Shown: piece after piece, positions 2,947-60,290 of the stretch | Layout: each line of letters opens with the position of its first letter | Numbering within the stretch: position 1 is the stretch's first letter | DNA from: a virus | Strand: one strand, 5' to 3' | IMG/VR virus record: IMGVR_UViG_3300021962_000035 | Span: 1 to 64,000 of that record | DNA: 64,000 nt | Notes under the pieces: model-generated | Database searches by the model: none | What the model saw: only the letters and a program-made list of their open reading frames with translations | Told to the model about the DNA's origin: nothing | Made by a program: the position numbers and the translations under genes

Positions 2947-2975
2947 GGAACTTAAGCTTGTAGCTGTGGTATAAT
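2947..2975 (+). promoter_or_regulatory. Middle/ECF-type promoter GGAAC-N17-GTATAAT
   Basis: Upstream of the oxygenase-GT cluster. Confidence 0.6.
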
Positions 2976-8493: not shown

Positions 8494-8501
8494 GATATAT
8501 A
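8494..8501 (+). promoter_or_regulatory. Late promoter GATATATA
   Basis: Upstream of the neck gene. Confidence 0.75.
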
Positions 8502-13681: not shown

Positions 13682-13689
13682 GATATATA
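13682..13689 (+). promoter_or_regulatory. Late promoter GATATATA
   Basis: Upstream of the sheath gene. Confidence 0.8.
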
Positions 13690-17073: not shown

Positions 17074-17119
17074 TACGAATTGGAGCCTTTTGGGCAACTA
17101 AGATAAATATAAACTGAAT

Positions 17120-17674
17120 ATGGCAGGATTATCACATTATCAAAATTCATTATCAGCAATAAACAAGTTCGAACCTGTTTACCTGAATCAGTTCGAGGTT
17201 ACCGTTATACCTCCTTCTGCTGTTGCTGGCGGAGAGATCCTACTACAACACGTTACGAAGGTTGGTGGACTTACATTAGACAAAAACCCAGGATTGGTTA
17301 CCCAAAAATATAAGTTTGCTAAAAGGAACTATGCTGGAGCTAAGCCCGATAACACTTATATGGATTTAAGTTTAAGCTTTACCGTCAACTTAAATGATGA
17401 TAACTCAATGTATGTTTTTAAAACATTGAGACAATGGAGTGACTTAATCTACAATCCTTTAACAGGTGCGATGGGACTTAAGAATGATTATACTGGTACT
17501 ATCGTGGTTTCGATTTTTAATAAACAAGGGGACGTTTTCAGAAGAATAACATGCAGAGATTGTTATCCAACTAAAGCCATAAATGAAATGAATCTTAACT
17601 ACACATCAACTGATATATTCAAGATTGATGATATGACATGGGCAGTTGATTACTGGGAGGATTTATTCTTATAA
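17120..17674 (+). CDS. gp19: Tail tube protein, paralog 1 (gp19-like)
   Basis: Follows the sheath; YLNQFEV, F-VNLN, LRQWSDLIYNPLTG, DCYPT, DYWE. Confidence 0.85.
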   Translation: MAGLSHYQNSLSAINKFEPVYLNQFEVTVIPPSAVAGGEILLQHVTKVGGLTLDKNPGLVTQKYKFAKRNYAGAKPDNTYMDLSLSFTVNLNDDNSMYVFKTLRQWSDLIYNPLTGAMGLKNDYTGTIVVSIFNKQGDVFRRITCRDCYPTKAINEMNLNYTSTDIFKIDDMTWAVDYWEDLFL

Positions 17675-21347: not shown

Positions 21348-21388
21348 AAATTTATCAAAAAATATTTTTTTTCCTCGATTCTATTTCT

Positions 21389-21396
21389 TATGTTTG
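21389..21396 (+). promoter_or_regulatory. Bacteroidota-type -7 element TAnnTTTG (TATGTTTG)
   Basis: Upstream of the dCMP deaminase-sigma operon, preceded by a T-tract. Confidence 0.7.
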
Positions 21397-21412
21397 TAGA
21401 AATTATAAACTA

Positions 21413-22018
21413 ATGGAGTTATCTACCCTATTGAATTATTCGGGCCGAGAAATTGTTTCCTCTGATTTTGATTTTTTAAATCCTGATTTTTTAAACATCA
21501 ATAACTGGAGCGTCAAAAAAACTGGAAGCTCGTTTGACATATCGTGGGATCACTCCGATATCATGAAGGAAAGTCCTTTGTATTGGGAAAATTCAAAGGC
21601 AATGAAAAACGACTTTATCTACTTACAGATGGCTAAAACCTGGGGAAAAAACTCGCATTGTAAAAGAATGCAGGTTGGATGCCTAATGGTAAAAGGCAAA
21701 TCGATAATCTCCGACGGTTATAATGGTTCTCCAACGGGATTTCCCAATATCTGCGAGGATGAAAATATGGTGACACTTCCGTATGTTCTCCATGCTGAAG
21801 CAAATGCGATAACCAAACTAGCAAAAAGTACACAGAGCTCAGATGGCTCTACTTTATACGTTACATTATCCCCGTGTTTTGAATGCTCAAAACTGATCAT
21901 ACAATCCGGGATAAAAAGAGTAGTTTTTTCGGGTGTTTACAGAAAACCTGAATCCCTTCCTTTTCTGATAGAGGCTGGGATTGAATTATACAGAATTAAC
22001 CAATTTGACCAAATTTAA
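21413..22018 (+). CDS. dCMP deaminase
   Basis: SHCKRMQVGC, GYNGSP, HAEANAI and LSPCFECSK zinc motifs. Confidence 0.95.
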   Translation: MELSTLLNYSGREIVSSDFDFLNPDFLNINNWSVKKTGSSFDISWDHSDIMKESPLYWENSKAMKNDFIYLQMAKTWGKNSHCKRMQVGCLMVKGKSIISDGYNGSPTGFPNICEDENMVTLPYVLHAEANAITKLAKSTQSSDGSTLYVTLSPCFECSKLIIQSGIKRVVFSGVYRKPESLPFLIEAGIELYRINQFDQI

Positions 22019-22021
22019 CAA

Positions 22022-22627
22022 ATGCAAAAAGAGACCAACATCCAAAAACTAGCAGAAGACTTTATTCTAACAAAAACAGACAAATCATTCGGAGACTTAT
22101 TTAATCGTTTAAAACCTGGTGTATCCAACCATTGTTTTCTGATTCTGAAAGATCCTGAACTAGCGGAAGACGCATTTCTTAACACCATGTCTAAGATATG
22201 GCTTAAGATAGATCAGTACGATATGGAAAGGGGTAACTTTTCCACATGGTGCTATAACATAGCCAGAAACGAATCCCTGCTTTTAATGAAGTCTAGAAAA
22301 AGACTGATCAATCACGAGGATCTTGATTTAGAGTATCTTTCGTCCAAAAATACCATAGGTGATCTGGGAGGGTTTTATACCATTGAAGACGATCCGGCTT
22401 ACGGATTTTTTAGTGAAGAAAATACAATTGACTCTGTATACGAATCGGTGCTAGACGAGATTAGATCATTACCTGAAACTTACCGTGATATCATGATAGA
22501 TCGGGAAATCAATGGTATGAAGTACAAGGATATTGCCGAAAAGTACGGAATTAAGAAAAGATCAATCGCAACAAGGATTAGAAGAGCTAGAGGGAGAATC
22601 AGAAAAAAGATGGACGGGAAACATTAA
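22022..22627 (+). CDS. Sigma-70 family (ECF-like) RNA polymerase sigma factor
   Basis: AEDAFLNT...KIDQYD...NFSTWCYNIARN (region 2); LPETYRDI...GMKYKDIAE...RIRRAR (region 4.2). Confidence 0.92.
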   Translation: MQKETNIQKLAEDFILTKTDKSFGDLFNRLKPGVSNHCFLILKDPELAEDAFLNTMSKIWLKIDQYDMERGNFSTWCYNIARNESLLLMKSRKRLINHEDLDLEYLSSKNTIGDLGGFYTIEDDPAYGFFSEENTIDSVYESVLDEIRSLPETYRDIMIDREINGMKYKDIAEKYGIKKRSIATRIRRARGRIRKKMDGKH

Positions 22628-22645
22628 CCAGAAATCTAGGTATAA
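22618..22645 (+). promoter_or_regulatory. Middle/ECF-type promoter GAAAC-N17-GTATAA
   Basis: Upstream of ORF 22661. Confidence 0.6.
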
Positions 22646-22660
22646 AAAATAAAGAATAAT

Positions 22661-23107
22661 ATGTGGTTAGCTATATTAAAATTTTTCAAGGTTTGGAAGG
22701 ATATTAAAATATATCGTGATTACCTTAAAATAGTGGAGAACGAATCTAAGAACTCCCCACTATGGGCTAGAAAAAATCTAAGAGCAGATTGGTTCGGTAG
22801 GATTTATACTGTCGTAAATCTTCCCCCTGAAGTTATCTTTTCTGCGGACCTTCCTAAAGAGTCTAGACCTTCGTTTGTGATGAACGAGCTCAAATCAACA
22901 AATGAGTACCTGAAGTCTCTTAATTTGGAAGAGATAATAACTCTAGGCATAGAACCGGTAAAAGGAACCAACGAGGAATCTTATCTTGTGGTTTATCAAT
23001 ACGTTTTCAGAGAATTAAGCTGGATTTGGATATTCCGATTCATCTTAGAAATAGGCTTAATTATATTCGCTATAGTTAATAGAAGTTACCTAATTAATTT
23101 GTTTTAA
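22661..23107 (+). CDS. Hypothetical protein with C-terminal transmembrane helix
   Basis: Clean ORF; hydrophobic C-terminus WIWIFRFILEIGLIIFAIV. Confidence 0.7.
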   Translation: MWLAILKFFKVWKDIKIYRDYLKIVENESKNSPLWARKNLRADWFGRIYTVVNLPPEVIFSADLPKESRPSFVMNELKSTNEYLKSLNLEEIITLGIEPVKGTNEESYLVVYQYVFRELSWIWIFRFILEIGLIIFAIVNRSYLINLF

Positions 23108-23913
23108 TGGATCCTAGACTGATAAGTGCTAAGAAAGAGATAGAGAAGAAGCTCGAGGTATTCAATGACAGGAATTTCTCATTCGACGAACCCTCCCATG
23201 TATATAGATACAATTCGGCTAAGTTCGATTCGGTAACAACTTTCCTTAAAACATTTAAAGTTCCCTTTGACCGTGAATATTGGTCCAAAAGGAAAGCTGA
23301 AGAAAGGGGCGTGGACGTTTCGGTTGTTCTGAATGAGTGGCAGGGAAAGGCCGATGTAGCTAATAGTTTAGGTACTAAAGTACATAAGTGGATAGAAGAT
23401 TTCTGGAGTGGAAATGCACCGGCAGTTCCAGAGGACGAAGTTCTGAGAGAAAGAGTCGATAAATTTATGGAGATCTATGATAAGAGGTTAAGTGTATTGC
23501 TTCCCCTTAAATCGGAGCTAAAGATATTTTCAAGAAAATGGAGATTGGCGGGAACGATAGATCAGCCATTTCTTTTCTGGGCCGATGATCTAGACATGCC
23601 ATTTCTTATAATAGGCGACTGGAAGACTAATGGCGATTTTAAACACGATGATCACCCTAAGGGAAGATATAAAAAATTGCTTAGGCCATTCTCACATCTT
23701 TATGAAAATAGCCACAACGAGTATTCTATACAGATTTCACTATACAGATTAATCTTAGAGGAGGAAGCTAACATACAAACCCACGATGGATTTTTATGTC
23801 ACTTGGGTCCAGAAGGTCCAGCTAAGCTGTATAGGACGAAAGATTTGCGTGAGCCGTTAAGAGCATATCTAAATGACAATAGAGCAGATTTCGATATTTT
23901 TTCTATAGATTAG
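23107..23913 (+). CDS. PD-(D/E)XK (RecB/Cas4-like) exonuclease
   Basis: SVTT, GTKVH, SELKIF...LAGTID...IIGDWKT and YSIQISLY motifs. Confidence 0.85.
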   Translation: MDPRLISAKKEIEKKLEVFNDRNFSFDEPSHVYRYNSAKFDSVTTFLKTFKVPFDREYWSKRKAEERGVDVSVVLNEWQGKADVANSLGTKVHKWIEDFWSGNAPAVPEDEVLRERVDKFMEIYDKRLSVLLPLKSELKIFSRKWRLAGTIDQPFLFWADDLDMPFLIIGDWKTNGDFKHDDHPKGRYKKLLRPFSHLYENSHNEYSIQISLYRLILEEEANIQTHDGFLCHLGPEGPAKLYRTKDLREPLRAYLNDNRADFDIFSID

Positions 23914-23940
23914 AAACATTTCGAGAAAGGGTAACTAAAA
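23913..23940 (+). promoter_or_regulatory. Middle/ECF-type promoter GAAAC-N17-CTAAAA
   Basis: Upstream of ORF 23962. Confidence 0.55.
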
Positions 23941-23961
23941 AAAATAAATATAAAAAATAAT

Positions 23962-24492
23962 ATGGCAAAGAAAAATTCCGAAAAAATTTCACTAGATCTA
24001 CAAAGTGGTCCTGGAGCATCATCAGCTATCGACTTTGATACATTGAACCAAGAGTCAGGTCTTTCTATAGATAAGGATCTTGTTGATTCTTTAGAAATCC
24101 AGATCAAAGCTAAGAAGGATGAAATCCAAACTAAGGTTTATGCGGTTTCTCTTAATGATGAGCTTTTAAATAGCTACGAGTACTTCATGGTTAACGAAGC
24201 TGAATGGAATGCTACAGAAGCTTTGGGTGTGAAAGAAGTTAATAAGCAGATTCAAAAAATCAAAAAAGAAGGAGTTAAAAGTGGTGTTGTTTATATGCCA
24301 GCTTTACCCCTTGAAGCAAGTCACTACTTTATCTCTAAAGGTAAAGGTAAAGGCTTAGCTAGCGCTGAGACTTTTATTAGCTTATATAAGCCTTTCGACC
24401 AAGCATTAGGAGATGCTAAGAAAGACGTTGCAGAGATCAAAGATCTTGAAAAACAGCTAGCAGCTGCTATGCAGGGGGTTTCACTAGGCTAA
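23962..24492 (+). CDS. Hypothetical protein
   Basis: ORF with its own promoter-like element upstream and a terminator downstream. Confidence 0.75.
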   Translation: MAKKNSEKISLDLQSGPGASSAIDFDTLNQESGLSIDKDLVDSLEIQIKAKKDEIQTKVYAVSLNDELLNSYEYFMVNEAEWNATEALGVKEVNKQIQKIKKEGVKSGVVYMPALPLEASHYFISKGKGKGLASAETFISLYKPFDQALGDAKKDVAEIKDLEKQLAAAMQGVSLG

Positions 24493-24512
24493 AAATATAA
24501 CATACCATAAAT

Positions 24513-24547
24513 AAAACCGGGTTCCTTGAAAGAATCCGGTTTTTTTG
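24513..24547 (+). terminator. Rho-independent terminator
   Basis: ACCGGGTTC...GAATCCGGT stem plus T-run. Confidence 0.8.
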
Positions 24548-24562
24548 TTGAGTTTGATTGTG

Positions 24563-24570
24563 GATATATA
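24563..24570 (+). promoter_or_regulatory. Late promoter GATATATA
   Basis: After a terminator, upstream of the membrane-protein operon. Confidence 0.75.
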
Positions 24571-24593
24571 AAGAAACTAAAAAAAACAGCTAT

Positions 24594-24893
24594 ATGAAAA
24601 CATTAGAAAAAATCAAAGAATATTCTTGGGCAATAACCCTAGTTCTAGTCCTTATGATTCTATTAAGACAATGTGGTGTTAACAGAGATATAGACAGAAT
24701 GGAGAAGCAGTCCAAAATACAAAGCGCTTACATAGATTCTATTTGCACAAAGAAAGAAGTTCAGAAGATTATGGAAATAGAGGGATTAAAAGCAGAAAAA
24801 AGAATGATCCAATCCACTGACAGAAAAATTATGGACGTTAACCGTCAGTCACAGATTGATCTAGAGATTAAAAAATTAGAAAATTCTAAATAA
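24594..24893 (+). CDS. Single-TM coiled-coil membrane protein (possible i-spanin-like)
   Basis: Start moved to ATG 24594, downstream of the late promoter; N-terminal TM YSWAITLVLVLMILL followed by a coiled coil. Confidence 0.55.
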   Translation: MKTLEKIKEYSWAITLVLVLMILLRQCGVNRDIDRMEKQSKIQSAYIDSICTKKEVQKIMEIEGLKAEKRMIQSTDRKIMDVNRQSQIDLEIKKLENSK

Positions 24894-25528
24894 TGGGAAA
24901 GAAAACGACGAGTTATTTTATAATAGGTACGTTCGTTACTCTATATTTGCTTGTTTCGGTAATTTCTACCATACACGTAATAGATTTCTTTAAGCTATCC
25001 AATCCAGATTGGTTAGCTATAAGTTTAGCTGTTGCTTTTGAGGTTGGTGCCGCAGCTTCCCTTGCTTCCCTTATAACTTTGGATAAGATGAATAAGGGCA
25101 TAGTTTGGGGTCTTTTTATAATATTGACACTCATGCAAGCTATGGGTAACACCTATTACGCATACACCCACCTGAGAGATTTTCAGGGATGGATAGAGTT
25201 ATTCGGCCTTACTGAAGAAGATTTAATCTATCAAAAGAGGGTTCTTTCTATAGTAAGTGGAGCAATCCTTCCGGTTGTTGCATTAGGGTTTATAAAATCC
25301 CTAGTAGATTACATTAAACCCACAGAGGAGGAATTAGTTACCGCAGAAGAAAAAGAAGAACCAGCTACGGAAGAAATCGTGGATACGGTAGAGGAGCAAA
25401 CCTCTCTTGATCCGATTATAGACTCAAACGTGGGTTCAGAGCCTTTACCTAGACCAGAAGCTATGGAGTCGATAAATACAGGAAGATATGAGACATCAGT
25501 TCATGTCGACCCAATGAAAATAAGCTAA
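24893..25528 (+). CDS. Multi-pass membrane protein with acidic tail (possible holin-like)
   Basis: About 4 hydrophobic helices, then an E-rich C-terminus; TAATG coupling to the upstream gene. Confidence 0.55.
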   Translation: MGKKTTSYFIIGTFVTLYLLVSVISTIHVIDFFKLSNPDWLAISLAVAFEVGAAASLASLITLDKMNKGIVWGLFIILTLMQAMGNTYYAYTHLRDFQGWIELFGLTEEDLIYQKRVLSIVSGAILPVVALGFIKSLVDYIKPTEEELVTAEEKEEPATEEIVDTVEEQTSLDPIIDSNVGSEPLPRPEAMESINTGRYETSVHVDPMKIS

Positions 25529-25534
25529 CAAGGA

Positions 25535-26209
25535 GTGTCAGACCAAAATACAACAACATATAATTTTGACGGGGGATCGGCACTTTCAAGTGGCCCTGAC
25601 TCTTTGTCAGCAGGATCAGCAGGATATGCTCTTAATCCGATGGCAGGGGCAACCGGTGGATTCGATACTGTCTATACCAATATAGCAATAACTAGAGCAA
25701 ATTTACCTAGAATAGATGCTACATTTAAAGAGTTTAACGAGAAGCCTGAACTTAAATTTATAAAGGAGTCTTTTGTTGTAACGCAGAAAGCCAACACCCT
25801 TGATTATCTTAATGTTGCTGACTTTTTTCATCCACTCCAAAGTTTTTCTGATTTCCAAAAGCAAACCTTTGAAATAGGTCCACAAAACAGTGTTAATATA
25901 GACACTGGGGGTTTAGAAGGAACCTCGGGAGAAGCATCGATGATAGTTGCTAGAGCTTACTATCTGCCTGAAGCGGATTCTGATGAAAGACTGCTTTTCT
26001 GGGACTATAAAAACGGCGGAAGAAATACAATGGGCAAACTAATGATCCTAACGGGTGCAGTTAAGGCAGGCACTAACTGGAGAGGATGGGATATGGATCC
26101 ATTTTCAACCTACGGACATACTGGACCGGCTGATGTGGGAGCGGGTGGTATTTCTTTCACCAATCCAACTAACAGGGTCGTAAAATTGACTATAATAACA
26201 GCTAATTAA
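25535..26209 (+). CDS. Hypothetical virion protein, paralog A
   Basis: Late operon; aligns by eye with the next ORF (WDY..MGKLMILTG..GW..GGISFTNP..VKLTII). Confidence 0.6.
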   Translation: MSDQNTTTYNFDGGSALSSGPDSLSAGSAGYALNPMAGATGGFDTVYTNIAITRANLPRIDATFKEFNEKPELKFIKESFVVTQKANTLDYLNVADFFHPLQSFSDFQKQTFEIGPQNSVNIDTGGLEGTSGEASMIVARAYYLPEADSDERLLFWDYKNGGRNTMGKLMILTGAVKAGTNWRGWDMDPFSTYGHTGPADVGAGGISFTNPTNRVVKLTIITAN

Positions 26210-26213
26210 TAAA

Positions 26214-26699
26214 ATGGCAACTAGACCGATAACATGTCCGTATGACGAAGGAACAGGATTCAGATTCTATAGAGGAAATTTAGTTCTTGACGAGGGCAAC
26301 ACCAATAAACTTCCGATATATCTTGAGATGGACGATCTTCTGGAGGAATCAGTTTCTTTCAGTAAGAGTAGGGTAATGCTAAAGGCAGGTAAGTGTTATT
26401 TGTTAAGTCAAACCGATATAGGGGACAACCTAGGGTATGTTTCTTTTATAGCAGTTAAGGCGGTTTACCCCTCAACCACAGTCGAGTCTAGAAAATATAT
26501 CCAGTGGACATATTTGAATGATACCTATTATATGGGGGAACTTACGGTACTCTCAGGCAAAAGCATATCGGCGAGCGACTCTATCTATGAAGGATGGCTA
26601 CTATCTAAACCCGGGGTATATTCAAATTTAGGAGGAATAGTTTTCTGTAACCCACACACAGATATAGACGTTAAATTAGAAATCTTAGTCTGCAAGTGA
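26214..26699 (+). CDS. Hypothetical virion protein, paralog B
   Basis: WTY..MGELTVLSG..GW..GGIVFCNP..VKLEIL. Confidence 0.6.
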   Translation: MATRPITCPYDEGTGFRFYRGNLVLDEGNTNKLPIYLEMDDLLEESVSFSKSRVMLKAGKCYLLSQTDIGDNLGYVSFIAVKAVYPSTTVESRKYIQWTYLNDTYYMGELTVLSGKSISASDSIYEGWLLSKPGVYSNLGGIVFCNPHTDIDVKLEILVCK

Positions 26700-26752
26700 T
26701 AAAATAGGGGCACAGATTAAATATATAGTAAAAAGTTTTTGTCCATAGCATG

Positions 26753-26760
26753 GATATATA
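26753..26760 (+). promoter_or_regulatory. Late promoter GATATATA
   Basis: Upstream of the 834-aa head protein gene. Confidence 0.75.
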
Positions 26761-26784
26761 AAAAGATTAAAAAAACAAAAGACC

Positions 26785-29289
26785 ATGGATTTTATAAACC
26801 AAGTTAAAAAACTGAAAGAACTAACAAAATCACCAGAGGTTAGACAAATTTGCGAGAGTTATCTTAGCGGATCCTCTGAGATGACCGAATCACAGGTTCT
26901 TGCCGCTCTTAACGAGCAAGCTTCAGCAGAAGCAACACCAGAAATGAAAAGCCACTGGGATTCTATAAAAAATGAGCAAATGGAGGAATCTAAAAAGAGA
27001 GCTTCAGCTTTAATGGAATCTTGGGGAGGTTTAAGAGGCAATGCTTCTTTAAATAATTCTGGTTCTTATATCGGAAACGAAAAGAAAGAAGAAACTAGCA
27101 AATCTCTTTTAGAGAGCCTAAATAACTTAGAAACAAACGACGATAGCACAAGATCTTTCGTTGAAGCTCAGGGACTTAGAAACTTAGGAGTTCTTGAATC
27201 AATCGGAAAAATCAAAGGCCTTTCTATTTACGAATACCCTAAGGTTAAAATCGTTTGTGAGCAGTATGCAAATATCATTGCAAATAAGAGCGTACCAGAA
27301 TTTTCAGTTATTCACAACTTCGTTGCTGAATTAGAATCTTTCAAATGGGACGTTACGGTTTTACCTATCATCGAAAATCTTAAAGAGAAGATTAATAAAT
27401 TCTCGAGAGAAATAGAAGTTTCTAAAGTTTTAGAATCTATTAAACAAAGTGGAAACAACAGTTTCTATTCTGAGCTTAGTGAATCATTAAGCAACTGGCT
27501 AATTTCTGAAAGCAAATCTTCAGGTTTACTTTCTAAAGAAATCTCAAAATGGTCTTTTAATCCAGTTGTTAGAAATTTAATCAATTACTTAAATGTTAAC
27601 GAGGCATCAGATTCTAGAAAATTGGAAATCCCTGTTAATGCTCAAGGAGAATCAAAAGTGGGAAGAATCTACTCACCAATCTTAATCGAGGGAGATAAAA
27701 CTATCTTTGCTATCGGAAATAGCTTATTTGAAGCTCAGGGAGAATCACTAAGAAAATTAAGCACAAAAGAAGTTGGATCTGTACCAGCTGATTATATCAG
27801 TTTGGTTAACTCTGCTCTTAGACCTTATGTTAAGATCAACGAAAACGGAATCTTAATCCAATTAGGAAAGAAATATGTTAGCTTGGTAGAAGAAAATGAA
27901 GGTGTTTCAGTTTACTTAGGTAAATCTAAACTAAACTTCAGAAGCGTAGGAGAATTGGCTAAAGTATTAGGCTTAGAATCTGCTTCACACTTTGCAGTTA
28001 ATGAATCTCAAGTAGTTGGTGATATCATCAATCTTTACGTAAACTTCTCTAACATCGTTGAGTTAGACTTTGCTAAAAATATAACTTCTAATATCTACGA
28101 AGGAGTTTCAGTTAACCTTATTAAATGGAACAGCGAAATTTACCTTCAAAGAATCAACGAAGGTATGAGAGAGAATTCAGTTTATAAAGTAAACGGATCT
28201 CAAGCGGTTAAAATGGTTAAGGATTATTTGAGATATGATATCTCTGAAGGTTTAACTGAATTCTTAGAAGGTGAGCAAAAACTTAAGTCTATCATGATTA
28301 ATGACAGAACTAAAGTACTAGAGAACATTTCTAGAATAGAAGATCAAATCAATAAGGTTGAGGGTCTAATGGAAAACAATCCTTTATATGCTTCTTCAAA
28401 GGAAATGAAATCCGCTCACGCTTTACTTAATAACGAACTTTCAGTATTAAGAGAAAAATGGAATCAGATCAATATTGAATTAAGTAAGATCGAGGATTCA
28501 CCAGAATATGAAACATTGTCTGAAGATGAGAAATTCAATATTGGTGACTATATCAAAGTTAAAGAATCTGGCGAAACTGGAAAGATCATTTCAGTAGATG
28601 CTTCATCAGGAAGATATACAGTTCTTTTGGATACCGGTAAAACTTCAGATTTCCTAGTTAATGAAATCTCTGATCTAGAAGAAGCTTTAAGCCAAGCAGC
28701 AGAAAAGAATTCTGATGATAAAGGAGAAGAGGAAGAAGGCGGAGAAGTTAAAGAGTCAGAAATCTCTAGAACCCTTGAAAAATCTGGTTTAAGCTTAGAG
28801 GAGCAAAAAGCTTTATTAAAAACTTTCTCTGACGGACACGGATTCACTAAAGCACCTAAGGGAGAAGGAGACGAAATCGAGATGGAACTCGATCATATGC
28901 ACGGTTACAATCTTACAGTTAACGAAGCTAAGGCTAAAGCAGATGCTATGGCTAAAGCACCAGGAAACAATAAGAAAGAAAAAGGTAAAGTGGAAGGCGA
29001 AGATGATTTAGCTGAAGGTCCAGAAACTAAGGATAAAACTGAATTTGAGGGTAAAGACGCAGATGGTAAGAACAAAGAAATCGGATACAATCTTAGAGAA
29101 GGAGTAGATGCTAATTTAGTAGAAGCACCGGAAAAAGGTAAAGCTGCTAAGGAGACAAAACATGTAACATCTTTAGATAAATTCATGAATTTAGCGGAAG
29201 CCCCAGGATCAGAAGGTGATATAGATTTCGAAGTAAATGATGAGATGGGTTACAACCTAGACGAATCTGACGATTTAAAAAAAAACTAA
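26785..29289 (+). CDS. Large probable prohead core / internal head protein with KOW/SH3-like domain
   Basis: Late promoter; many L/I/V-x-E motifs; FNIGDYIKVKESGETGKIISVD; C-terminal GYNL and xAEAP repeats. Confidence 0.6.
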   Translation: MDFINQVKKLKELTKSPEVRQICESYLSGSSEMTESQVLAALNEQASAEATPEMKSHWDSIKNEQMEESKKRASALMESWGGLRGNASLNNSGSYIGNEKKEETSKSLLESLNNLETNDDSTRSFVEAQGLRNLGVLESIGKIKGLSIYEYPKVKIVCEQYANIIANKSVPEFSVIHNFVAELESFKWDVTVLPIIENLKEKINKFSREIEVSKVLESIKQSGNNSFYSELSESLSNWLISESKSSGLLSKEISKWSFNPVVRNLINYLNVNEASDSRKLEIPVNAQGESKVGRIYSPILIEGDKTIFAIGNSLFEAQGESLRKLSTKEVGSVPADYISLVNSALRPYVKINENGILIQLGKKYVSLVEENEGVSVYLGKSKLNFRSVGELAKVLGLESASHFAVNESQVVGDIINLYVNFSNIVELDFAKNITSNIYEGVSVNLIKWNSEIYLQRINEGMRENSVYKVNGSQAVKMVKDYLRYDISEGLTEFLEGEQKLKSIMINDRTKVLENISRIEDQINKVEGLMENNPLYASSKEMKSAHALLNNELSVLREKWNQINIELSKIEDSPEYETLSEDEKFNIGDYIKVKESGETGKIISVDASSGRYTVLLDTGKTSDFLVNEISDLEEALSQAAEKNSDDKGEEEEGGEVKESEISRTLEKSGLSLEEQKALLKTFSDGHGFTKAPKGEGDEIEMELDHMHGYNLTVNEAKAKADAMAKAPGNNKKEKGKVEGEDDLAEGPETKDKTEFEGKDADGKNKEIGYNLREGVDANLVEAPEKGKAAKETKHVTSLDKFMNLAEAPGSEGDIDFEVNDEMGYNLDESDDLKKN

Positions 29290-29444
29290 GTCGTAACTTC
29301 TATTTCGCTCCGAAATTTGATAGTCAGAAGACTCCAGGAAAAGAATTTGTTGATTCGTCTGCAGGTAAATTAAGCAAGGCACCAACAGGTAAGGAACAAG
29401 AGGAACAAGAGGAAGAATCTGATTCTAAGGAAGACTCTAAATAA
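29286..29444 (+). CDS. 52-codon -1-frame extension of the 26785 ORF (frameshift product)
   Basis: Open frame LSRNFYFAPKFDSQKTPGKEFVDSSAGKLSKAPTGKEQEEQEEESDSKEDSK* begins at the A9 run, has no start codon, and ends before the terminator. Confidence 0.7.
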   Translation, partial: LSRNFYFAPKFDSQKTPGKEFVDSSAGKLSKAPTGKEQEEQEEESDSKEDSK

Positions 29445-29459
29445 TATAAAAAAATAACT

Positions 29460-29492
29460 GAGAACGTAGTTAAGCTACGTTCTCTTTTTTTT
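29460..29492 (+). terminator. Rho-independent terminator
   Basis: GAGAACGTAG-ttaag-CTACGTTCTC plus T-run. Confidence 0.88.
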
Positions 29493-29521
29493 GAAATATT
29501 TCTATTTTTTTCGACTAGAAA
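29493..29521 (+). promoter_or_regulatory. Middle/ECF-type promoter GAAAT-N17-CTAGAAA
   Basis: Between a terminator and the gp55-like sigma gene. Confidence 0.55.
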
Positions 29522-29554
29522 GAAATGACCAACCTTCAAAATAATAAAGAATTA

Positions 29555-29914
29555 ATGGCAAAAGACTATGTTAGAAATAGTGATCTTATCGTCGCTGTTA
29601 TAGAATCGAAAAAAGCGGGTAAACTTACCCCTGAGACTATAAGAATGTTTACCCTAATGATCCAGGGTATATCCAAAAAAATGGCCTATAAAGATCCAGA
29701 GGACAAAGAGGATTGCATGGCTTTTGCTATGGAAGATCTTTGTAAATATTGGGATAGATTCAATCCAGAAAAATCCAACAATCCCTTTGCTTACTTTACC
29801 CAGATAGCAAAGAATGGATTTGCAAAGGGATGGAAAAAATTACACCCACCAAAAAGTCCTAAAACTATCCCATTCAGCTACATAACAGGTGACGATAATT
29901 CGTATAACGTATAA
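29555..29914 (+). CDS. gp55: Late-transcription sigma factor (T4 gp55-like)
   Basis: YVRNSDL...DCMAFAMEDLCKYWDRFNPEKSNNPFAYFTQIAKNGF; likely start at ATG 29555. Confidence 0.85.
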   Translation: MAKDYVRNSDLIVAVIESKKAGKLTPETIRMFTLMIQGISKKMAYKDPEDKEDCMAFAMEDLCKYWDRFNPEKSNNPFAYFTQIAKNGFAKGWKKLHPPKSPKTIPFSYITGDDNSYNV

Positions 29915-30408: not shown

Positions 30409-31010
30409 AATATTCAGAATCTGTATTACAATACAAGAAAGAATTCAACAGTATTGCAGAGCTAGTAAAGAATACTGATGATGTGTTTTCCGAGAAATAT
30501 TTCTCCGGAGGAAATTCGGAGAAGAGTTTTTCCCCTCCTTTTATACCCGGAGAAATATATGCCTTTCCCTATCCCACTGACAGCGAGTTGTCAGATAAGA
30601 GAAAGTTTATAGACAGAAATCCTATAGTATTATGCACAGATTCTTACCCGACACCGGAAAATGGTGTGATATTAAGAGGTATCGATCTTGTCGTAACACC
30701 TCCGGAGTATAGAATGAAAATAGTGGGAAAGGTTTATGATAACTTTTCTTCCATGATAGAAAAAAATCAGAATTACTATACAAAAGGTGGAGCTATATCT
30801 CCCTTGCCTTTAACTAATATCAATCTTAAGAATATGCTTGCTAATACCGGATATGAGTTTTCTCTGTTTGGATTCAAGACAAGGTTCATCAGAGAAATAC
30901 ATGTTTTGGACTTAGAAGACTGGTATAAATTACCTTATCTGAGAAGGGGCGATGTAGAGGGCTTAGATCTGCAGGGGATATATAAGGAATACCAATCGAA
31001 ATTAATTTAA
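30405..31010 (+). CDS. DNA end protector (T4 gp2-like)
   Basis: FIPGEIYAFPY...FIDRNPIVL; overlaps gp4 and precedes the portals. Confidence 0.55.
   Translation: MKYSESVLQYKKEFNSIAELVKNTDDVFSEKYFSGGNSEKSFSPPFIPGEIYAFPYPTDSELSDKRKFIDRNPIVLCTDSYPTPENGVILRGIDLVVTPPEYRMKIVGKVYDNFSSMIEKNQNYYTKGGAISPLPLTNINLKNMLANTGYEFSLFGFKTRFIREIHVLDLEDWYKLPYLRRGDVEGLDLQGIYKEYQSKLI
30977..30984 (+). promoter_or_regulatory. Late promoter GATATATA
   Basis: In the 3' end of the gp2-like gene, upstream of portal A. Confidence 0.6.
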
Positions 31011-31042
31011 GTTTTGATAGTAGAATAACTAAAACATACTAA

Positions 31043-34291: not shown

Positions 34292-34460
34292 TTCCGTAAT
34301 CCATCGTTTATTTGACTTATAGGCACTCTTTATAATTTATTAATCAAACATATGCAATTTACCGCAGGTTTCAAAATAGGGCGGTTAAAATAGCAAAAGG
34401 AAGGGTTTAAATGCTTCTAACAATTTGTCCTTAATATTTTTTTTAACCGGGATCATTTCT

Positions 34461-34468
34461 TATATTTG
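34461..34468 (+). promoter_or_regulatory. Bacteroidota-type -7 element (TATATTTG)
   Basis: Upstream of the ligase; flanks closely match the 21389 site. Confidence 0.7.
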
Positions 34469-35832: not shown

Positions 35833-35861
35833 GAAACAACTTCTTTTTTTAACTCTAGAAA
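35833..35861 (+). promoter_or_regulatory. Middle/ECF-type promoter GAAAC-N17-CTAGAAA
   Basis: Upstream of the clamp loader. Confidence 0.6.
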
Positions 35862-35865
35862 TAAT

Positions 35866-36810
35866 ATGATACAAGAACTCTTAACAGAAAAACTACGCCC
35901 AAAGGAGCTTAGACATATGATACTTCCGCAGAGGATATCTAAGATATTCGAGAACGGTCTAGGTCATAATGTCTTATTAAGCGGACCCCCAGGATGTGGC
36001 AAAACTACACTGGCTAAAATATTAGCAACAGGATATCCTAGCATATTCATAAATGTCTCTGATGAAAGCTCGGTAGAAACGATACGGGTAAAAATAAATG
36101 ACTTCTGTTCCACCATATCCGTGATGGACGGTAAATCATCTAAGAAGATTGTCATTTTAGATGAGTTTGACGGAGCTTCGGATCAATTCTATAAAGCACT
36201 AAGGGGAACAATCGAAAAGTTCGCTAGCAACGCTAGATTCATTGCTACGTGCAACTATATCAACAAGGTTCCGGATGCAATCCAAAGTAGATTCGAAGTT
36301 ATAGATTTCAATCCAGTAAACAGTGACGAAGAAAATGCTCTTAAGTCAGAATGGAATAGGAGAATTGGTTTAATTCTAGGTAAAATTGGAATAACCATAG
36401 ATTCAGATTCGCTGAACGAGTTTCAGAAGAATTATTATCCCGATTTCAGATCAGCTTTGAATAAGATTCAGACCTGGATGATAGAGGGAGTTAAAAATGT
36501 AGATTCCGCTAAGATTAACGAGCTAGGTTGGTCTTATGAAGATCTTTATACCCTTATAACCACTTCTAAGGATCCAGTGAAAAACTACCAGAGTATCGCA
36601 GGAGAATACCAAGGAAAGGTTGACGAAGTTATGTCAGCTCTGGGTGAAGAGTTTATAAACTGGATAATTAACAACAAGCCGGAATTGAAGAAAATAATCC
36701 CAGCAGTAATCGTATTAGTTGCAGATCACCAAGCTCAGAGAACCCAGGTTATTGATCCTATGGTTTCTTTATTGTCTCTAGTTTTTCAAATACAGAAACT
36801 AACGGATTAA
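35866..36810 (+). CDS. gp44: Clamp loader large subunit (gp44/RFC-like AAA+)
   Basis: EKLRP, GPPGCGKTT, ILDEFD, IATCN, AIQSRF, PDFR. Confidence 0.93.
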   Translation: MIQELLTEKLRPKELRHMILPQRISKIFENGLGHNVLLSGPPGCGKTTLAKILATGYPSIFINVSDESSVETIRVKINDFCSTISVMDGKSSKKIVILDEFDGASDQFYKALRGTIEKFASNARFIATCNYINKVPDAIQSRFEVIDFNPVNSDEENALKSEWNRRIGLILGKIGITIDSDSLNEFQKNYYPDFRSALNKIQTWMIEGVKNVDSAKINELGWSYEDLYTLITTSKDPVKNYQSIAGEYQGKVDEVMSALGEEFINWIINNKPELKKIIPAVIVLVADHQAQRTQVIDPMVSLLSLVFQIQKLTD

Positions 36811-39972: not shown

Positions 39973-40001
39973 GAAACTTAAAGACCTTTTATCAGTACAA
40001 T
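39973..40001 (+). promoter_or_regulatory. Middle/ECF-type promoter GAAAC-N17-GTACAAT
   Basis: Upstream of the UVDE-like gene. Confidence 0.6.
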
Positions 40002-40919: not shown

Positions 40920-40942
40920 TTTTTTATTTCGCGATATTGTAT

Positions 40943-40950
40943 TATCTTTG
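40943..40950 (+). promoter_or_regulatory. Bacteroidota-type -7 element (TATCTTTG)
   Basis: Upstream of the 3'-5' exonuclease. Confidence 0.65.
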
Positions 40951-45253: not shown

Positions 45254-45261
45254 GATATATA
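45254..45261 (+). promoter_or_regulatory. Late promoter GATATATA
   Basis: Upstream of the prohead protease gene. Confidence 0.8.
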
Positions 45262-45289: not shown

Positions 45290-47251
45290 ATGCCACAACT
45301 ACAATCATTAAACGAAAATATGGTATTCATCCTTGAGAGACAGAATTCCATACTAGAAGCGAAAAAGTCAGAATCTGACGATTACGTTCTAGAAGGTATT
45401 GCTGCTGTTTTCGGACAAGAGAACAACAACAATAGAATATACGAGGAGAAGGAATATTTACCGCACCTTGAATATTTGAAGGATAAGATCTCACAGAATA
45501 GACTGGTTGGTGAATTAGATCACCCAGAGAAATTCGATGTGTCTCTTAAGAACATCTCTCACATCATAACAGATCTTAACTACGATAAAGGTAACAGAGA
45601 GCTTAAGATTAAGGTTAAACTTTTAGATACCCCAGCGGGTAGAATAGCTAAGAACTTAGTTGATGCTGGAGTTCCTCTTTCTATTTCTTCAAGAGCAGCT
45701 GGTTCAGTAGGTAATGATAAAAAGGTGGCAATTAAGAAAATTTTTACTTACGATCTAGTAGCTGATCCTGGATTTAAGGACGCACAACTTGAAAGAGTGT
45801 ATGAAAGCCAAGGGTTTACATCTCAAGAATTCGAAGCAATGAAAAATAATAGCATATTAAATAGCTTAGAATGCTTAAATGAATCTTTAGGTATCGAAAA
45901 AGAATCTTCACTTAAGATATATAAAGTTGAAAATAACGAAGAATTCAACAAAATCGTGAATAAATCAGATAATAAAAATAAATCAGTCCTTATGGAGAAC
46001 AATGAATTTGTTACTGCGGAGGAGCTTAATCAGTATTCAGTCTTCTTGAAAAAAGAGATGGATTCGATGAAAGCCGCTATCGCAGAGGCTAAAAATCAAA
46101 AAGCATCGCTAACTGAATCTGAAGATTTAAGTAAAGCTAATGAAGCTCTTGAAGAAAGAGTTGCTAAGCTTGAAAAATATTCAGAGTATTTAGCTGAGAA
46201 TCTAGAAAATTCTATTAAATACGGTGAGTATTTAGCAGAAAACTTGGACAGCACTATCAACTACAGTAAATATTTAGCAGAAAACTTAGACAAGAATATT
46301 TCTTATTCTAAGTACTTAGCTGAAAACGTAGATAAGTCTATCTCTTATTCCGAGTATGTTGCTGAAAGCGTTGACAAGAACATCGAGTACTCTAAATACT
46401 TAGCAGAAAAATTGGATCAAAATATTCAATACTCAGAGTACTTAGCAGAAAACGTAGATAAAGGAATCGCTTATTCTGAATATCTTGGAGAAAACTTAGA
46501 TAAAGGAATCGCTTATACTGAATACGTTGCTGAAAAACTAAACAACGGAATCGAATACACTGAATACGTTGCTGAGAATTTAAACAAGGGCATCGAGTAC
46601 TCTGACTATCTTGCAGAGAACTTAAATAAAGGATTAGACTATTCTGAGTATCTTGCAGAGAAATTAAACAGAGGAATTGCTTATAGCGAATACATCGCTG
46701 AGTCAGTTTCTACTAAAATTCCATCTAATGGTACTGGAGTATTAAAAGAGAGTGTAAATCTATCTGCAGAAGCAGGTCTTAATGAATCTGGCTTTGCTGG
46801 AAACTATGATAACCTAACTTCACAGATTGATTCATTAATAGAATCGGTTAAGACACAAAAAACCGCTTCAAACATCAACGAAGCTGCTAAAGCAGTAAAC
46901 CCAGCCGAAACACAGAAGGCTAACGAAACAGCTCTTAACGAGTCAGAGAACACAACTAAAACAGGTCTTAAGTTTATTGACGAAATGCCAGCAGAATATG
47001 CTCCGGTATGGGAATCTTTATCAGAAGGACACCAAGCATCTATTGTTGCTCAGTCACACTTCTATAATTTAGATACCCCTTATCAGATCAAAAATTTCTG
47101 GTCAACTCGTCAGCTTGGAGCTAAACCAGTTGGAGTACAAAAACTTGACGAGAGTGAAAATGTAGCCGAGACTGCAAAAACACAAGCATATTCTTCAGAT
47201 TACATGAATTATATCGCTTCTGCACTTGAGCAAAAATTTCAAAAAAGATAA
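45290..47251 (+). CDS. gp21: Prohead protease (gp21-like) fused to scaffold (gp22-like)
   Basis: Catalytic motifs GELDHP, SISSRAAGSV, YDLVADPGF; long coiled-coil repeat C-terminus; precedes the MCP gene. Confidence 0.9.
   Translation: MPQLQSLNENMVFILERQNSILEAKKSESDDYVLEGIAAVFGQENNNNRIYEEKEYLPHLEYLKDKISQNRLVGELDHPEKFDVSLKNISHIITDLNYDKGNRELKIKVKLLDTPAGRIAKNLVDAGVPLSISSRAAGSVGNDKKVAIKKIFTYDLVADPGFKDAQLERVYESQGFTSQEFEAMKNNSILNSLECLNESLGIEKESSLKIYKVENNEEFNKIVNKSDNKNKSVLMENNEFVTAEELNQYSVFLKKEMDSMKAAIAEAKNQKASLTESEDLSKANEALEERVAKLEKYSEYLAENLENSIKYGEYLAENLDSTINYSKYLAENLDKNISYSKYLAENVDKSISYSEYVAESVDKNIEYSKYLAEKLDQNIQYSEYLAENVDKGIAYSEYLGENLDKGIAYTEYVAEKLNNGIEYTEYVAENLNKGIEYSDYLAENLNKGLDYSEYLAEKLNRGIAYSEYIAESVSTKIPSNGTGVLKESVNLSAEAGLNESGFAGNYDNLTSQIDSLIESVKTQKTASNINEAAKAVNPAETQKANETALNESENTTKTGLKFIDEMPAEYAPVWESLSEGHQASIVAQSHFYNLDTPYQIKNFWSTRQLGAKPVGVQKLDESENVAETAKTQAYSSDYMNYIASALEQKFQKR
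45916..45923 (+). promoter_or_regulatory. Internal late promoter GATATATA
   Basis: Inside the protease gene, 68 nt before the in-frame ATG 45992. Confidence 0.55.
46163..46708 (+). repeat. 13 imperfect copies of a 14-aa (42-nt) repeat, approx. DKGIxYSEYLAENL
   Basis: Read directly from the translation of the scaffold region. Confidence 0.9.
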
Positions 47252-49084: not shown

Positions 49085-49092
49085 GATATATA
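49085..49092 (+). promoter_or_regulatory. Late promoter GATATATA
   Basis: After the MCP terminator. Confidence 0.75.
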
Positions 49093-53998: not shown

Positions 53999-54006
53999 TA
54001 TATTTG
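53999..54006 (+). promoter_or_regulatory. Bacteroidota-type -7 element (TATATTTG)
   Basis: Upstream of the kinase-AsnB pair. Confidence 0.6.
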
Positions 54007-54048
54007 CTAAGTGGAACATGTATTGTGTTCCGCTATAGAAAGAAATAT

Positions 54049-56043: not shown

Positions 56044-56051
56044 GATATATA
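56044..56051 (+). promoter_or_regulatory. Late promoter GATATATA
   Basis: Upstream of ORF 56072. Confidence 0.75.
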
Positions 56052-57940: not shown

Positions 57941-57948
57941 GATATATA
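57941..57948 (+). promoter_or_regulatory. Late promoter GATATATA
   Basis: Upstream of ORF 57967. Confidence 0.75.
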
Positions 57949-59337: not shown

Positions 59338-59366
59338 GAAACAAAGACCTTTCACATTTCTACAAT
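59338..59366 (+). promoter_or_regulatory. Middle/ECF-type promoter GAAAC-N17-CTACAAT
   Basis: Upstream of ORF 59372. Confidence 0.6.
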
Positions 59367-59645: not shown

Positions 59646-60290
59646 ATGGGGATATTTTCTTCATTATTTAAGAAAGATAAAAAAAAGAAAAAAATGGAAA
59701 TAAACGAACAAACAATAAATGATGCTCGTTCATATTACGGTGCACATGATTTTCAGTGGATTAAGGGGGATGACGCAGGAAATACTGAAATATTTAAAAA
59801 CATATCCCTGAATGGAGATATCTCATTTATTGAATTTAATAGCGGTAAAAGAATAAACACGGAACTTCTGGAAGAATTTATGATAATGCTTCCAGCCCAA
59901 CCAAAACCCGTTGAAATCCCTCAGCCTCAATATAATCCACCGGTTCAAACCCACCAGTCCACCGTTACCTCCATCATATATGACGATGCAAAAAATGCTC
60001 AAATTGATTCACCGATATATAAGTTACTGAAAAAGCAGAAAAAGAACATGGTCGAGGTTTCAATAAAGATAAAATTGAATCTTCCTCCTAAAGATCTTTA
60101 CACTGTTCTTTCTGGCTCTTTTGAGGATGCAGAAAAGGAAATAATAGATTTTGTTTTGGATGGAGTTGATATAGAGAATATAAAAGCATCTCTATCCGAT
60201 TCTATCAAAAAATCTTATTACACTGACTCTAAACCGCAAGAGGGGGCAAAGAAAAGTACAAAACCACAAAAAGAAACCAATGAGCAATAA
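59646..60290 (+). CDS. Hypothetical protein
   Basis: Clean ORF; alternative start at 59694. Confidence 0.7.
   Translation: MGIFSSLFKKDKKKKKMEINEQTINDARSYYGAHDFQWIKGDDAGNTEIFKNISLNGDISFIEFNSGKRINTELLEEFMIMLPAQPKPVEIPQPQYNPPVQTHQSTVTSIIYDDAKNAQIDSPIYKLLKKQKKNMVEVSIKIKLNLPPKDLYTVLSGSFEDAEKEIIDFVLDGVDIENIKASLSDSIKKSYYTDSKPQEGAKKSTKPQKETNEQ

Follow-up and report, generated by a model that had tools for sequence, protein, structure and literature searches.

Two phage-encoded sigma factors and three recurrent upstream motifs, found together in one stretch of viral DNA, raise the question of whether the transcription programme of an uncultured phage can be read from its genome. The stretch analysed here, hereafter the window, is the first 64 kb of the 121,823-bp virus record IMGVR_UViG_3300021962_000035 of IMG/VR. 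One of its two sigma genes encodes a protein of the extracytoplasmic function (ECF) family and the other a protein resembling gp55, the late sigma of phage T4. We found that three motif classes, namely the host-type TAnnTTTG (class i), a bipartite GAAAC-type element (class ii) and the lone 8-mer GATATATA (class iii), are biased in strand and position, are conserved before orthologous genes and precede different sets of genes. We consider it fairly probable that they are the promoters of a three-step relay, leading from the host sigma-A to the ECF sigma and from there to the gp55-like sigma.

The original prediction had placed TAnnTTTG at 21389, 34461, 40943 and 53999, the first of these before the operon carrying the ECF-like sigma, and G(A/G)AA(C/T)-N17-(G/C)TA at 2947, 22618, 23913, 29493, 35833, 39973 and 59338, one of them directly before the gp55-like gene, with a third motif before structural genes. 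Every one of these positions is correct and the contexts were borne out, the gp55-like gene being preceded by a GAAAT variant. The second motif is real, and its description as N17-(G/C)TA turned out to be incomplete; enrichment over expectation or shuffled sequence holds for classes ii and iii and does not hold for bare TAnnTTTG.

For the analysis of conservation we compared about 100 syntenic IMG/VR loci, retrieved through the ECF sigma (66-100% identity), the UvsE-like protein and a head protein, and we express conservation as the fraction of distinct upstream regions per orthologous gene that keep the motif. Across these related loci, the in-class motif is kept in 62-100% of the distinct orthologous upstream regions, and off-class motifs are close to zero. 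Furthermore, in the four complete relatives (G001-G004, 270-373 kb; G002 is 99% complete) all three classes show a strong gene-strand excess over a reversed-pattern control.

Class iii is the lone 8-mer. In the record as a whole, GATATATA occurs 22 times on the plus strand and never on the minus strand. Sixteen of the 22 copies are intergenic, 16-31 nucleotides (nt) before start codons, in a record of which intergenic DNA makes up 3.5%, and several of the apparently coding copies are explained by over-long calls of open reading frames (ORFs). It is also the top enriched intergenic 8-mer (15 found against 0.21 expected, p about 6e-23). An alignment of 28 sites gave the consensus (G/A)ATATATA(A/G), without a -35 element: there is no information outside the 8-mer, and no upstream position exceeds 0.3 bits. 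T4 late promoters likewise have no -35 element (PMC2988020). The genes that follow are virion genes, encoding neck, terminase, sheath, portal, protease and capsid proteins. Besides the sites whose conservation is listed in Table 1, the motif is kept in 100% of upstream regions before 42548 and in 88% before 19653.

Two further copies of GATATATA lie on the gene strand inside genes, at 45916-45923 in the 653-aa protease-fusion gene and at 60014-60021 in the gene at 59646-60290; they may be internal late promoters. The tail-tube gene at 17120 is preceded by a conserved AGATAAATATAA at about 17095-17110, which is replaced by GATATATA in two of the compared loci (L007 and L008). This AGATAAATATAA is possibly a variant late promoter nearer to the T4 late motif TATAAATA.

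Class ii required a new definition. The form G(A/G)AA(C/T)-N17-(G/C)TA has 46 plus-strand matches, most of them coding and nine intergenic, and we replaced it with G(A/G)AA(C/T)-N18-TAnAA(A/T), in which the -10-like part begins 18 nt after AA(C/T). Searched as G(A/G)AA(C/T)-N17/18-TAnA(A/G)(A/T), the motif occurs eight times in intergenic DNA, where shuffling that DNA gave 0.59 copies and none of 5000 shuffles reached eight. In relatives the spacing is constant at 18 and the sequence of the spacer is free to vary; the site at 2947 has the same spacing in all four loci of its own lineage (L110, L111, L112 and L114). The GAAAC before 22661 is kept even in relatives with an altered reading frame over it, and is therefore a DNA-level signal. 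Downstream of class ii we find an exonuclease unit, an operon with clamp-loader, guanylate kinase and exonuclease genes, a UvsE-like endonuclease, a Nudix-containing unit and the run of genes starting at 2997. Class ii also precedes the gp55-like gene, whose operon continues with head-completion and DNA-end-protector genes.

Upstream of the gp55-like gene, the sites found in 22 of 30 distinct relatives are always GAAAT with a spacing of 18. We had considered this region as a degenerate class i promoter (TATTTTTT), and rejected that assignment: the relatives keep GAAAT-N18-TAnAAT and have no TAnnTTT. Before the portal gene a class ii variant (30998-31026) stands in tandem with a GATATATA located within the 3' end of the upstream gene, and both are conserved.

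An identical 14-mer, GGAACTTAAGCTTG, is present at 2947-2960 of the window and at 70279-70292 of the genome (L104:10279-10292). One copy is followed by a class ii -10 element and the other by GATATATA.

For class i, TAnnTTTG on its own shows no enrichment in the window, with 79 copies where 68 are expected; we discarded it as evidence, and only its composite with a T-run and its position were counted. The composite T5-N10-22-TAnnTTTG falls, on the plus strand, in intergenic sites plus one coding match, and is absent from the minus strand. The four class i sites have in common the T-run and, some 11 nt before TAnnTTTG, a (C/T)CG, and the class is highly stereotyped: T6-8, A, n, (C/T)CG, 10-12 nt and TAnnTTTG follow one another at 21365-21396, 34437-34468 and 40920-40950, and again between 130 and 265 kb of G002. 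In that relative there are roughly 25-30 distinct copies, mostly in the genome half missing from this record. TAnnTTTG is the -7 element of Bacteroidota sigma-A promoters (PMC6847099, PMC2483708). The conserved CCG, at positions of about -26 to -24, has no counterpart in the published consensus for Bacteroidota and may represent an early-promoter element specific to the phage. The position of the -33 TTTG, some 19-21 nt upstream, is covered by the T6-8 run without the G, and at 21389 the fourth base of TAnnTTTG is a G, a rare variant in F. johnsoniae (PMC6847099). The genes behind class i encode dCMP deaminase and the ECF sigma, DNA ligase, a 3'-5' exonuclease, and a P-loop kinase with an AsnB-like partner, a pair that probably starts at ATG 54049 rather than at TTG 54004.

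We then assigned the two sigma factors to families. The 201-aa protein matches regions 2 and 4 of sigma-70 in Pfam, which gives no r3 or r1 domain. It scores 66.5 bits against the NCBIfam model TIGR02937 (sigma70-ECF), above the cut-off of 42.9. Its best NCBIfam model is TIGR02985, the Bacteroides ECF expansion family, and it stays below the cut-offs of the subfamily models (TIGR02985, SigW). The closest solved structure is Bacillus subtilis SigW (5wuq, E 5e-11), with both domains aligned. By its domains, its size of about 200 aa and the curated threshold, the protein belongs to the ECF (group 4) branch of the sigma-70 family. As for the second sigma, its sole match in the PDB is T4 gp55 (7d7c_F, E 4e-4), and tblastn matched its gene to gp55 of T4-like cyanophages and to relatives in Chryseobacterium and Tenacibaculum phages; it is a gp55 homologue with a sigma-2-like domain only. 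The first ATG of this gene is missing in most relatives, and the in-frame ATG at 29555 probably represents the conserved start. The nearest GenBank relatives of both sigma genes are found in Prevotella Lak megaphages and other huge uncultured phages.

Table 1. Putative promoters, terminators and key genes of the window, in order of position; percentages give the share of distinct upstream regions that keep the motif.
Feature	Coordinates	Strand	Details
Class ii, GGAAC-N18-TATAAT	2947..2975	+	before 192-aa gene (2997) opening next plus-strand run
Class iii	8494..8501	+	before neck / head-closure gene
Class iii	13682..13689	+	before tail sheath gene; 100% of 27
Class i, T8-CCTCG-N11-TATGTTTG	21365..21396	+	16 nt before dCMP deaminase start; TAnnTTTG in 89% of 53
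dCMP deaminase	21413..22018	+	first gene of early operon; PF00383 E 2e-24; phrog_174 E 1e-52
ECF-family sigma, 201 aa	22022..22627	+	Pfam Sigma70_r2 (residues 26-94) and Sigma70_r4_2 (141-192)
Class ii, GAAAC-N18-TATAAA	22618..22646	+	before 22661; GAAAC overlaps last sigma codons; 94% of 53
Class ii	23913..23941	+	before 176-aa gene (23962); 91% of 45
Intrinsic terminator closing early/middle unit	24513..24543	+	12-pair stem, then T-run
Class iii, GATATATA	24563..24570	+	after the 24513..24543 terminator
Two tandem class iii, AATATATA and GATATATA	26720..26760	+	before 834-aa gene; 100% of 36
Intrinsic terminator	29460..29484	+	just upstream of gp55-like promoter
Class ii variant, GAAAT-N18-TAGAAA	29493..29521	+	before gp55-like gene; 22/30 (73%)
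gp55-like late sigma, sigma-2 only	29525..29914	+	phrog_234 ('late sigma transcription factor') E 1e-15; Pfam r2 only
Class iii GATATATA and class ii variant GAAAT-N18-TAGAAT, tandem	30977..31026	+	before portal gene; 100% and 82% of 33
Class i	34437..34468	+	before DNA ligase gene; TAnnTTTG at 34461; 77% of 13
Class ii	35833..35861	+	before clamp-loader operon; 86% of 14
Class ii	39973..40001	+	before UvsE-like gene; 85% of 13
Class i	40920..40950	+	before 3'-5' exonuclease gene; TAnnTTTG at 40943; 69% of 13
Class iii	45254..45261	+	before prohead protease and major capsid genes; 100%
Class iii	49085..49092	+	before 49119; 100%
Class i TATATTTG, then class ii-like GGAAC-N18-TATAGA	53999..54041	+	before P-loop kinase / AsnB-like pair
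Class iii	56044..56051	+	before 56072
Class iii	57941..57948	+	before 57967
Class ii	59338..59366	+	before 89-aa gene (59372); 4/4 relatives

The relay that we propose would run on the host core RNA polymerase throughout. In a first step, the host primary sigma (Bacteroidota sigma-A) would read class i, before nucleotide-metabolism and replication genes and before the dCMP deaminase and ECF sigma genes. In a second step, the ECF sigma, made of sigma-4 and sigma-2 domains, would read class ii before recombination/repair, clamp-loader and other non-structural genes, and the GAAAT variant of this class would drive the gp55-like gene. Finally, the gp55-like protein, reduced to sigma-2, would read the lone 8-bp (G/A)ATATATA before the virion genes. 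Both phage sigma genes are preceded by promoters of the class assigned to the tier before their own, an arrangement conserved in relatives. To this extent the cascade of the original prediction has the right wiring; which sigma reads which class, strongly, and the early-middle-late timing are what we infer, and the prediction had no view of the third sigma that some relatives carry.

The phage itself is seen only in part. The record is linear, has a GC content of 37% and carries 102 of its 108 long ORFs on the plus strand. We dropped the idea that its 121.8 kb are a complete genome, as CheckV puts its completeness at 44%; this value and the size of the complete relatives lead us to conclude that it is a fragment of a T4-related jumbo phage. 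T4-like virion genes are present (neck, large terminase, sheath, tail tube, portal, prohead protease and gp23-type capsid). A nucleotide search of GenBank phages with window positions 21361-29914 returned no match. Leaders are A-rich and have no Shine-Dalgarno motif, which together with the TAnnTTTG elements points to a Bacteroidota host (PMC6847099). Collagen-like Gly-X-Y repeats occupy both ends of the record (1-585 and 120766-121823) and may have caused the assembly to break there.

Several observations weigh against the relay. Three of the four complete relatives (G001, G003 and G004) carry a third sigma of about 305 aa, RpoS/RpoD-like and placed behind a class i promoter (L190:3286-4200, that is G001:70285-71196; L191:2574-3491 in G003), and there may be a fourth promoter class or an extra branch of the cascade. 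The -10-like TAnAAT of class ii resembles the -10 hexamer of group-1/2 sigmas more than the CGT-type -10 of most studied ECF sigmas. Moreover, this element is only 4-5 nt from the ATG at 35866 and 59372, which is conserved and suggests leaderless mRNAs or a different start-site geometry. The sites before the gp55-like and portal genes are always GAAAT and the remaining class ii sites GAAAC or GGAAC, and the GAAAT sites may form a weaker or later-firing subclass; the most divergent relatives have no class ii site before the gp55-like gene. Regarding the control of the ECF sigma, autoregulation is not apparent, its operon being preceded by class i only and class ii occurring in 8% of the orthologous upstream regions. 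No anti-sigma domain was found in the fragment, and no ECF anti-sigma partner was seen.

At the late end, the small ORFs scanned gave no match to gp33, in a record 44% complete and with no gp33-specific model used. A gp45-type clamp was not matched by PF02916 or PF09116 in the record, nor by PF09116 in the four complete relatives, and PolB was searched for and not found. The phage probably has a divergent clamp, since it encodes a gp44-like clamp loader. With gp33 and gp45 not found, T4-type late transcription holds here only for the sigma and the promoter architecture.

Directly after the ECF sigma gene and behind a class ii promoter, 22661-23107 encodes a 148-aa protein with hydrophobic segments at both ends, for which Pfam, PHROG and NCBIfam gave no match. 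These searches lend no support to an anti-sigma role, and assigning the protein such a role, or one in feedback, is pure speculation.

The third sigma bears on the most serious alternative, in which class ii is read by another factor, either a host alternative sigma or the RpoS/RpoD-like third sigma, and the ECF sigma serves another gene set. The class ii -10 (TATAAT, TACAAT, TAGAAT), with its 17-nt spacer after GAAACA, does resemble a classical sigma-70-type promoter, and, with its record only 44% complete, this phage may have a counterpart of the 305-aa sigma encoded by three complete relatives. However, searches with Pfam and at the protein level found no third sigma in G002, which has only the ECF and gp55-like sigmas and nevertheless contains all three classes, with 13 strict class ii sites on the gene strand against one on the other, orthologous ones included. 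The third sigma is thus dispensable for class ii, and strict class ii counts are similar in relatives with and without it. In addition, the ECF sigma must read some bipartite set, and we saw no other conserved bipartite motif. We regard this alternative as unlikely.

More distant phages set the limits of the code. The single genome of Chryseobacterium phage MA9V-1 has a gp55-like gene, no ECF-like match, no class ii excess and almost no GATATATA, and Lak-B5 has no GATATATA excess. In MA9V-1 the lack of an ECF sigma thus goes together with a lack of class ii, a co-occurrence that speaks for the relay on the strength of one genome, and the motifs are lineage-specific. In Lak-B5, TATCTTTG stands before the sigma-bearing operon and AAAAC-N18-TATAAA before the gp55-like gene, which is suggestive, but in DNA too AT-rich to count as a test.

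One may also accept the sigma assignments and doubt the strict temporal relay: the sigmas would accumulate together, and the promoter classes would set the level or the gene group. Such an arrangement would fit the tandem of class iii and class ii before the portal gene, that of class i and class ii before the kinase pair, and the head-completion and DNA-end-protector genes within the gp55-like operon. It would leave aside that each sigma gene is found one tier above its proposed class, in relatives too, that a terminator insulates the gp55-like promoter, and that gene functions split cleanly by class, and we think it quite improbable.

Still less can be said for an exchange of roles, with the gp55-like protein reading the TAnAA of class ii alongside a GAAAC-binding activator and something else reading GATATATA. 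TAnAAA/TATAAA is indeed nearer to TATAAATA than GATATATA is, but the gp55-like gene would then depend on the very promoter class that its product reads and nothing would switch it on, GATATATA offers a sigma-4 domain no second element, and we found no activator candidate; we give this exchange very little credence. Finally, that the motifs are RNA-level or other DNA signals (processing, translation, packaging-related repeats) would suit the A-rich leaders and the frequency of AT-rich words near starts, but it is scarcely credible for bipartite elements with fixed spacing and a freely varying spacer, placed strictly on the gene strand and often right after terminators, which match three known promoter architectures and include a GAAAC kept across a reading-frame change.

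The three-sigma relay can be compared with two phage programmes. In T4, early genes depend on sigma-70, middle genes on MotA/AsiA, and late genes on gp55-gp33-gp45 acting at TATAAATA. Our phage would share with T4 the gp55-type, sigma-2-only protein, the single 8-bp AT-rich element without a -35 (here read from sequence) and, as proposed, the use of the host core polymerase, and it has the same virion module (sheath, portal, protease, capsid) and a clamp loader. On the other hand, its middle tier is apparently a complete ECF sigma with a bipartite promoter instead of sigma appropriation by MotA/AsiA, its late motif is GATATATA instead of TATAAATA, and its early promoters are of the Bacteroidota TAnnTTTG type. 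In the Bacillus phage SPO1, the cascade passes from the host sigma-A to gp28 and then to gp33-gp34. The likeness lies in a relay of phage sigmas with each sigma gene behind the promoter class of the previous tier; unlike in SPO1, the sigmas here are of the ECF and T4 gp55 types rather than gp28 and gp33/34, and both the host phylum and the promoter sequences differ.

An AAC in the -35 element is a hallmark of ECF promoters. Those of SigW, of the ECF01 group, read TGAAAC-N16-CGTA (TGAAAC/CGTA in PMC5758882), and class ii has the same GAAAC in its -35 element and a (G/C)TA at the same distance. The match of the phage sigma to SigW amounts to only about 46 bits, however, and the -10-like element presumed for it is TAnAA(A/T) instead of CGTA, the base in front of TAnAA(A/T) being poorly conserved; unlike SigW, it has no anti-sigma partner or autoregulation that we could see.

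A minimal sigma paired with a fuller one was noted by Iyer et al. (2021) in T4-like cyanophages and other T4-related 'group 2' jumbo phages (Lak, Tenacibaculum PTm1); they called the fuller one RpoD-like and gave no promoter code (PMC7824862). The present phage likewise has a gp55-like minimal sigma beside a fuller one, and both have Lak homologues. Our literature search found no description of this promoter code or relay. We tentatively suggest, as a possibility well short of an expectation, that this widespread lineage of uncultured 270-370 kb Bacteroidota phages swapped the MotA/AsiA middle switch of T4 for an ECF sigma that was captured from the host phylum and needs no anti-sigma to work, that GAAAC versus GAAAT times the hand-over, and that the gp55-type sigma works on a new 8-bp element, maybe without gp33/gp45.

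Sigma cascades of phages are known from a few cultured examples such as SPO1 and T4, and here a programme is legible in the genome of an uncultured phage. If the relay is true, it would be a succession of sigmas fully readable from sequence, three in number and four where the RpoS-like sigma is also encoded, in a phylum with unusual promoters, no use of Shine-Dalgarno sequences and few studies of its transcription. The analysis yields exact promoter sequences for the three tiers, and with them candidate orthogonal pairs of an ECF sigma and a gp55-type sigma with their promoters, usable in Bacteroidota genetics. It also improves the annotation of hundreds of related IMG/VR contigs with respect to gene timing, true starts and operon borders. 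Likewise, the relatives with and without the third sigma offer a natural comparison for how a tier is gained in phage transcription.

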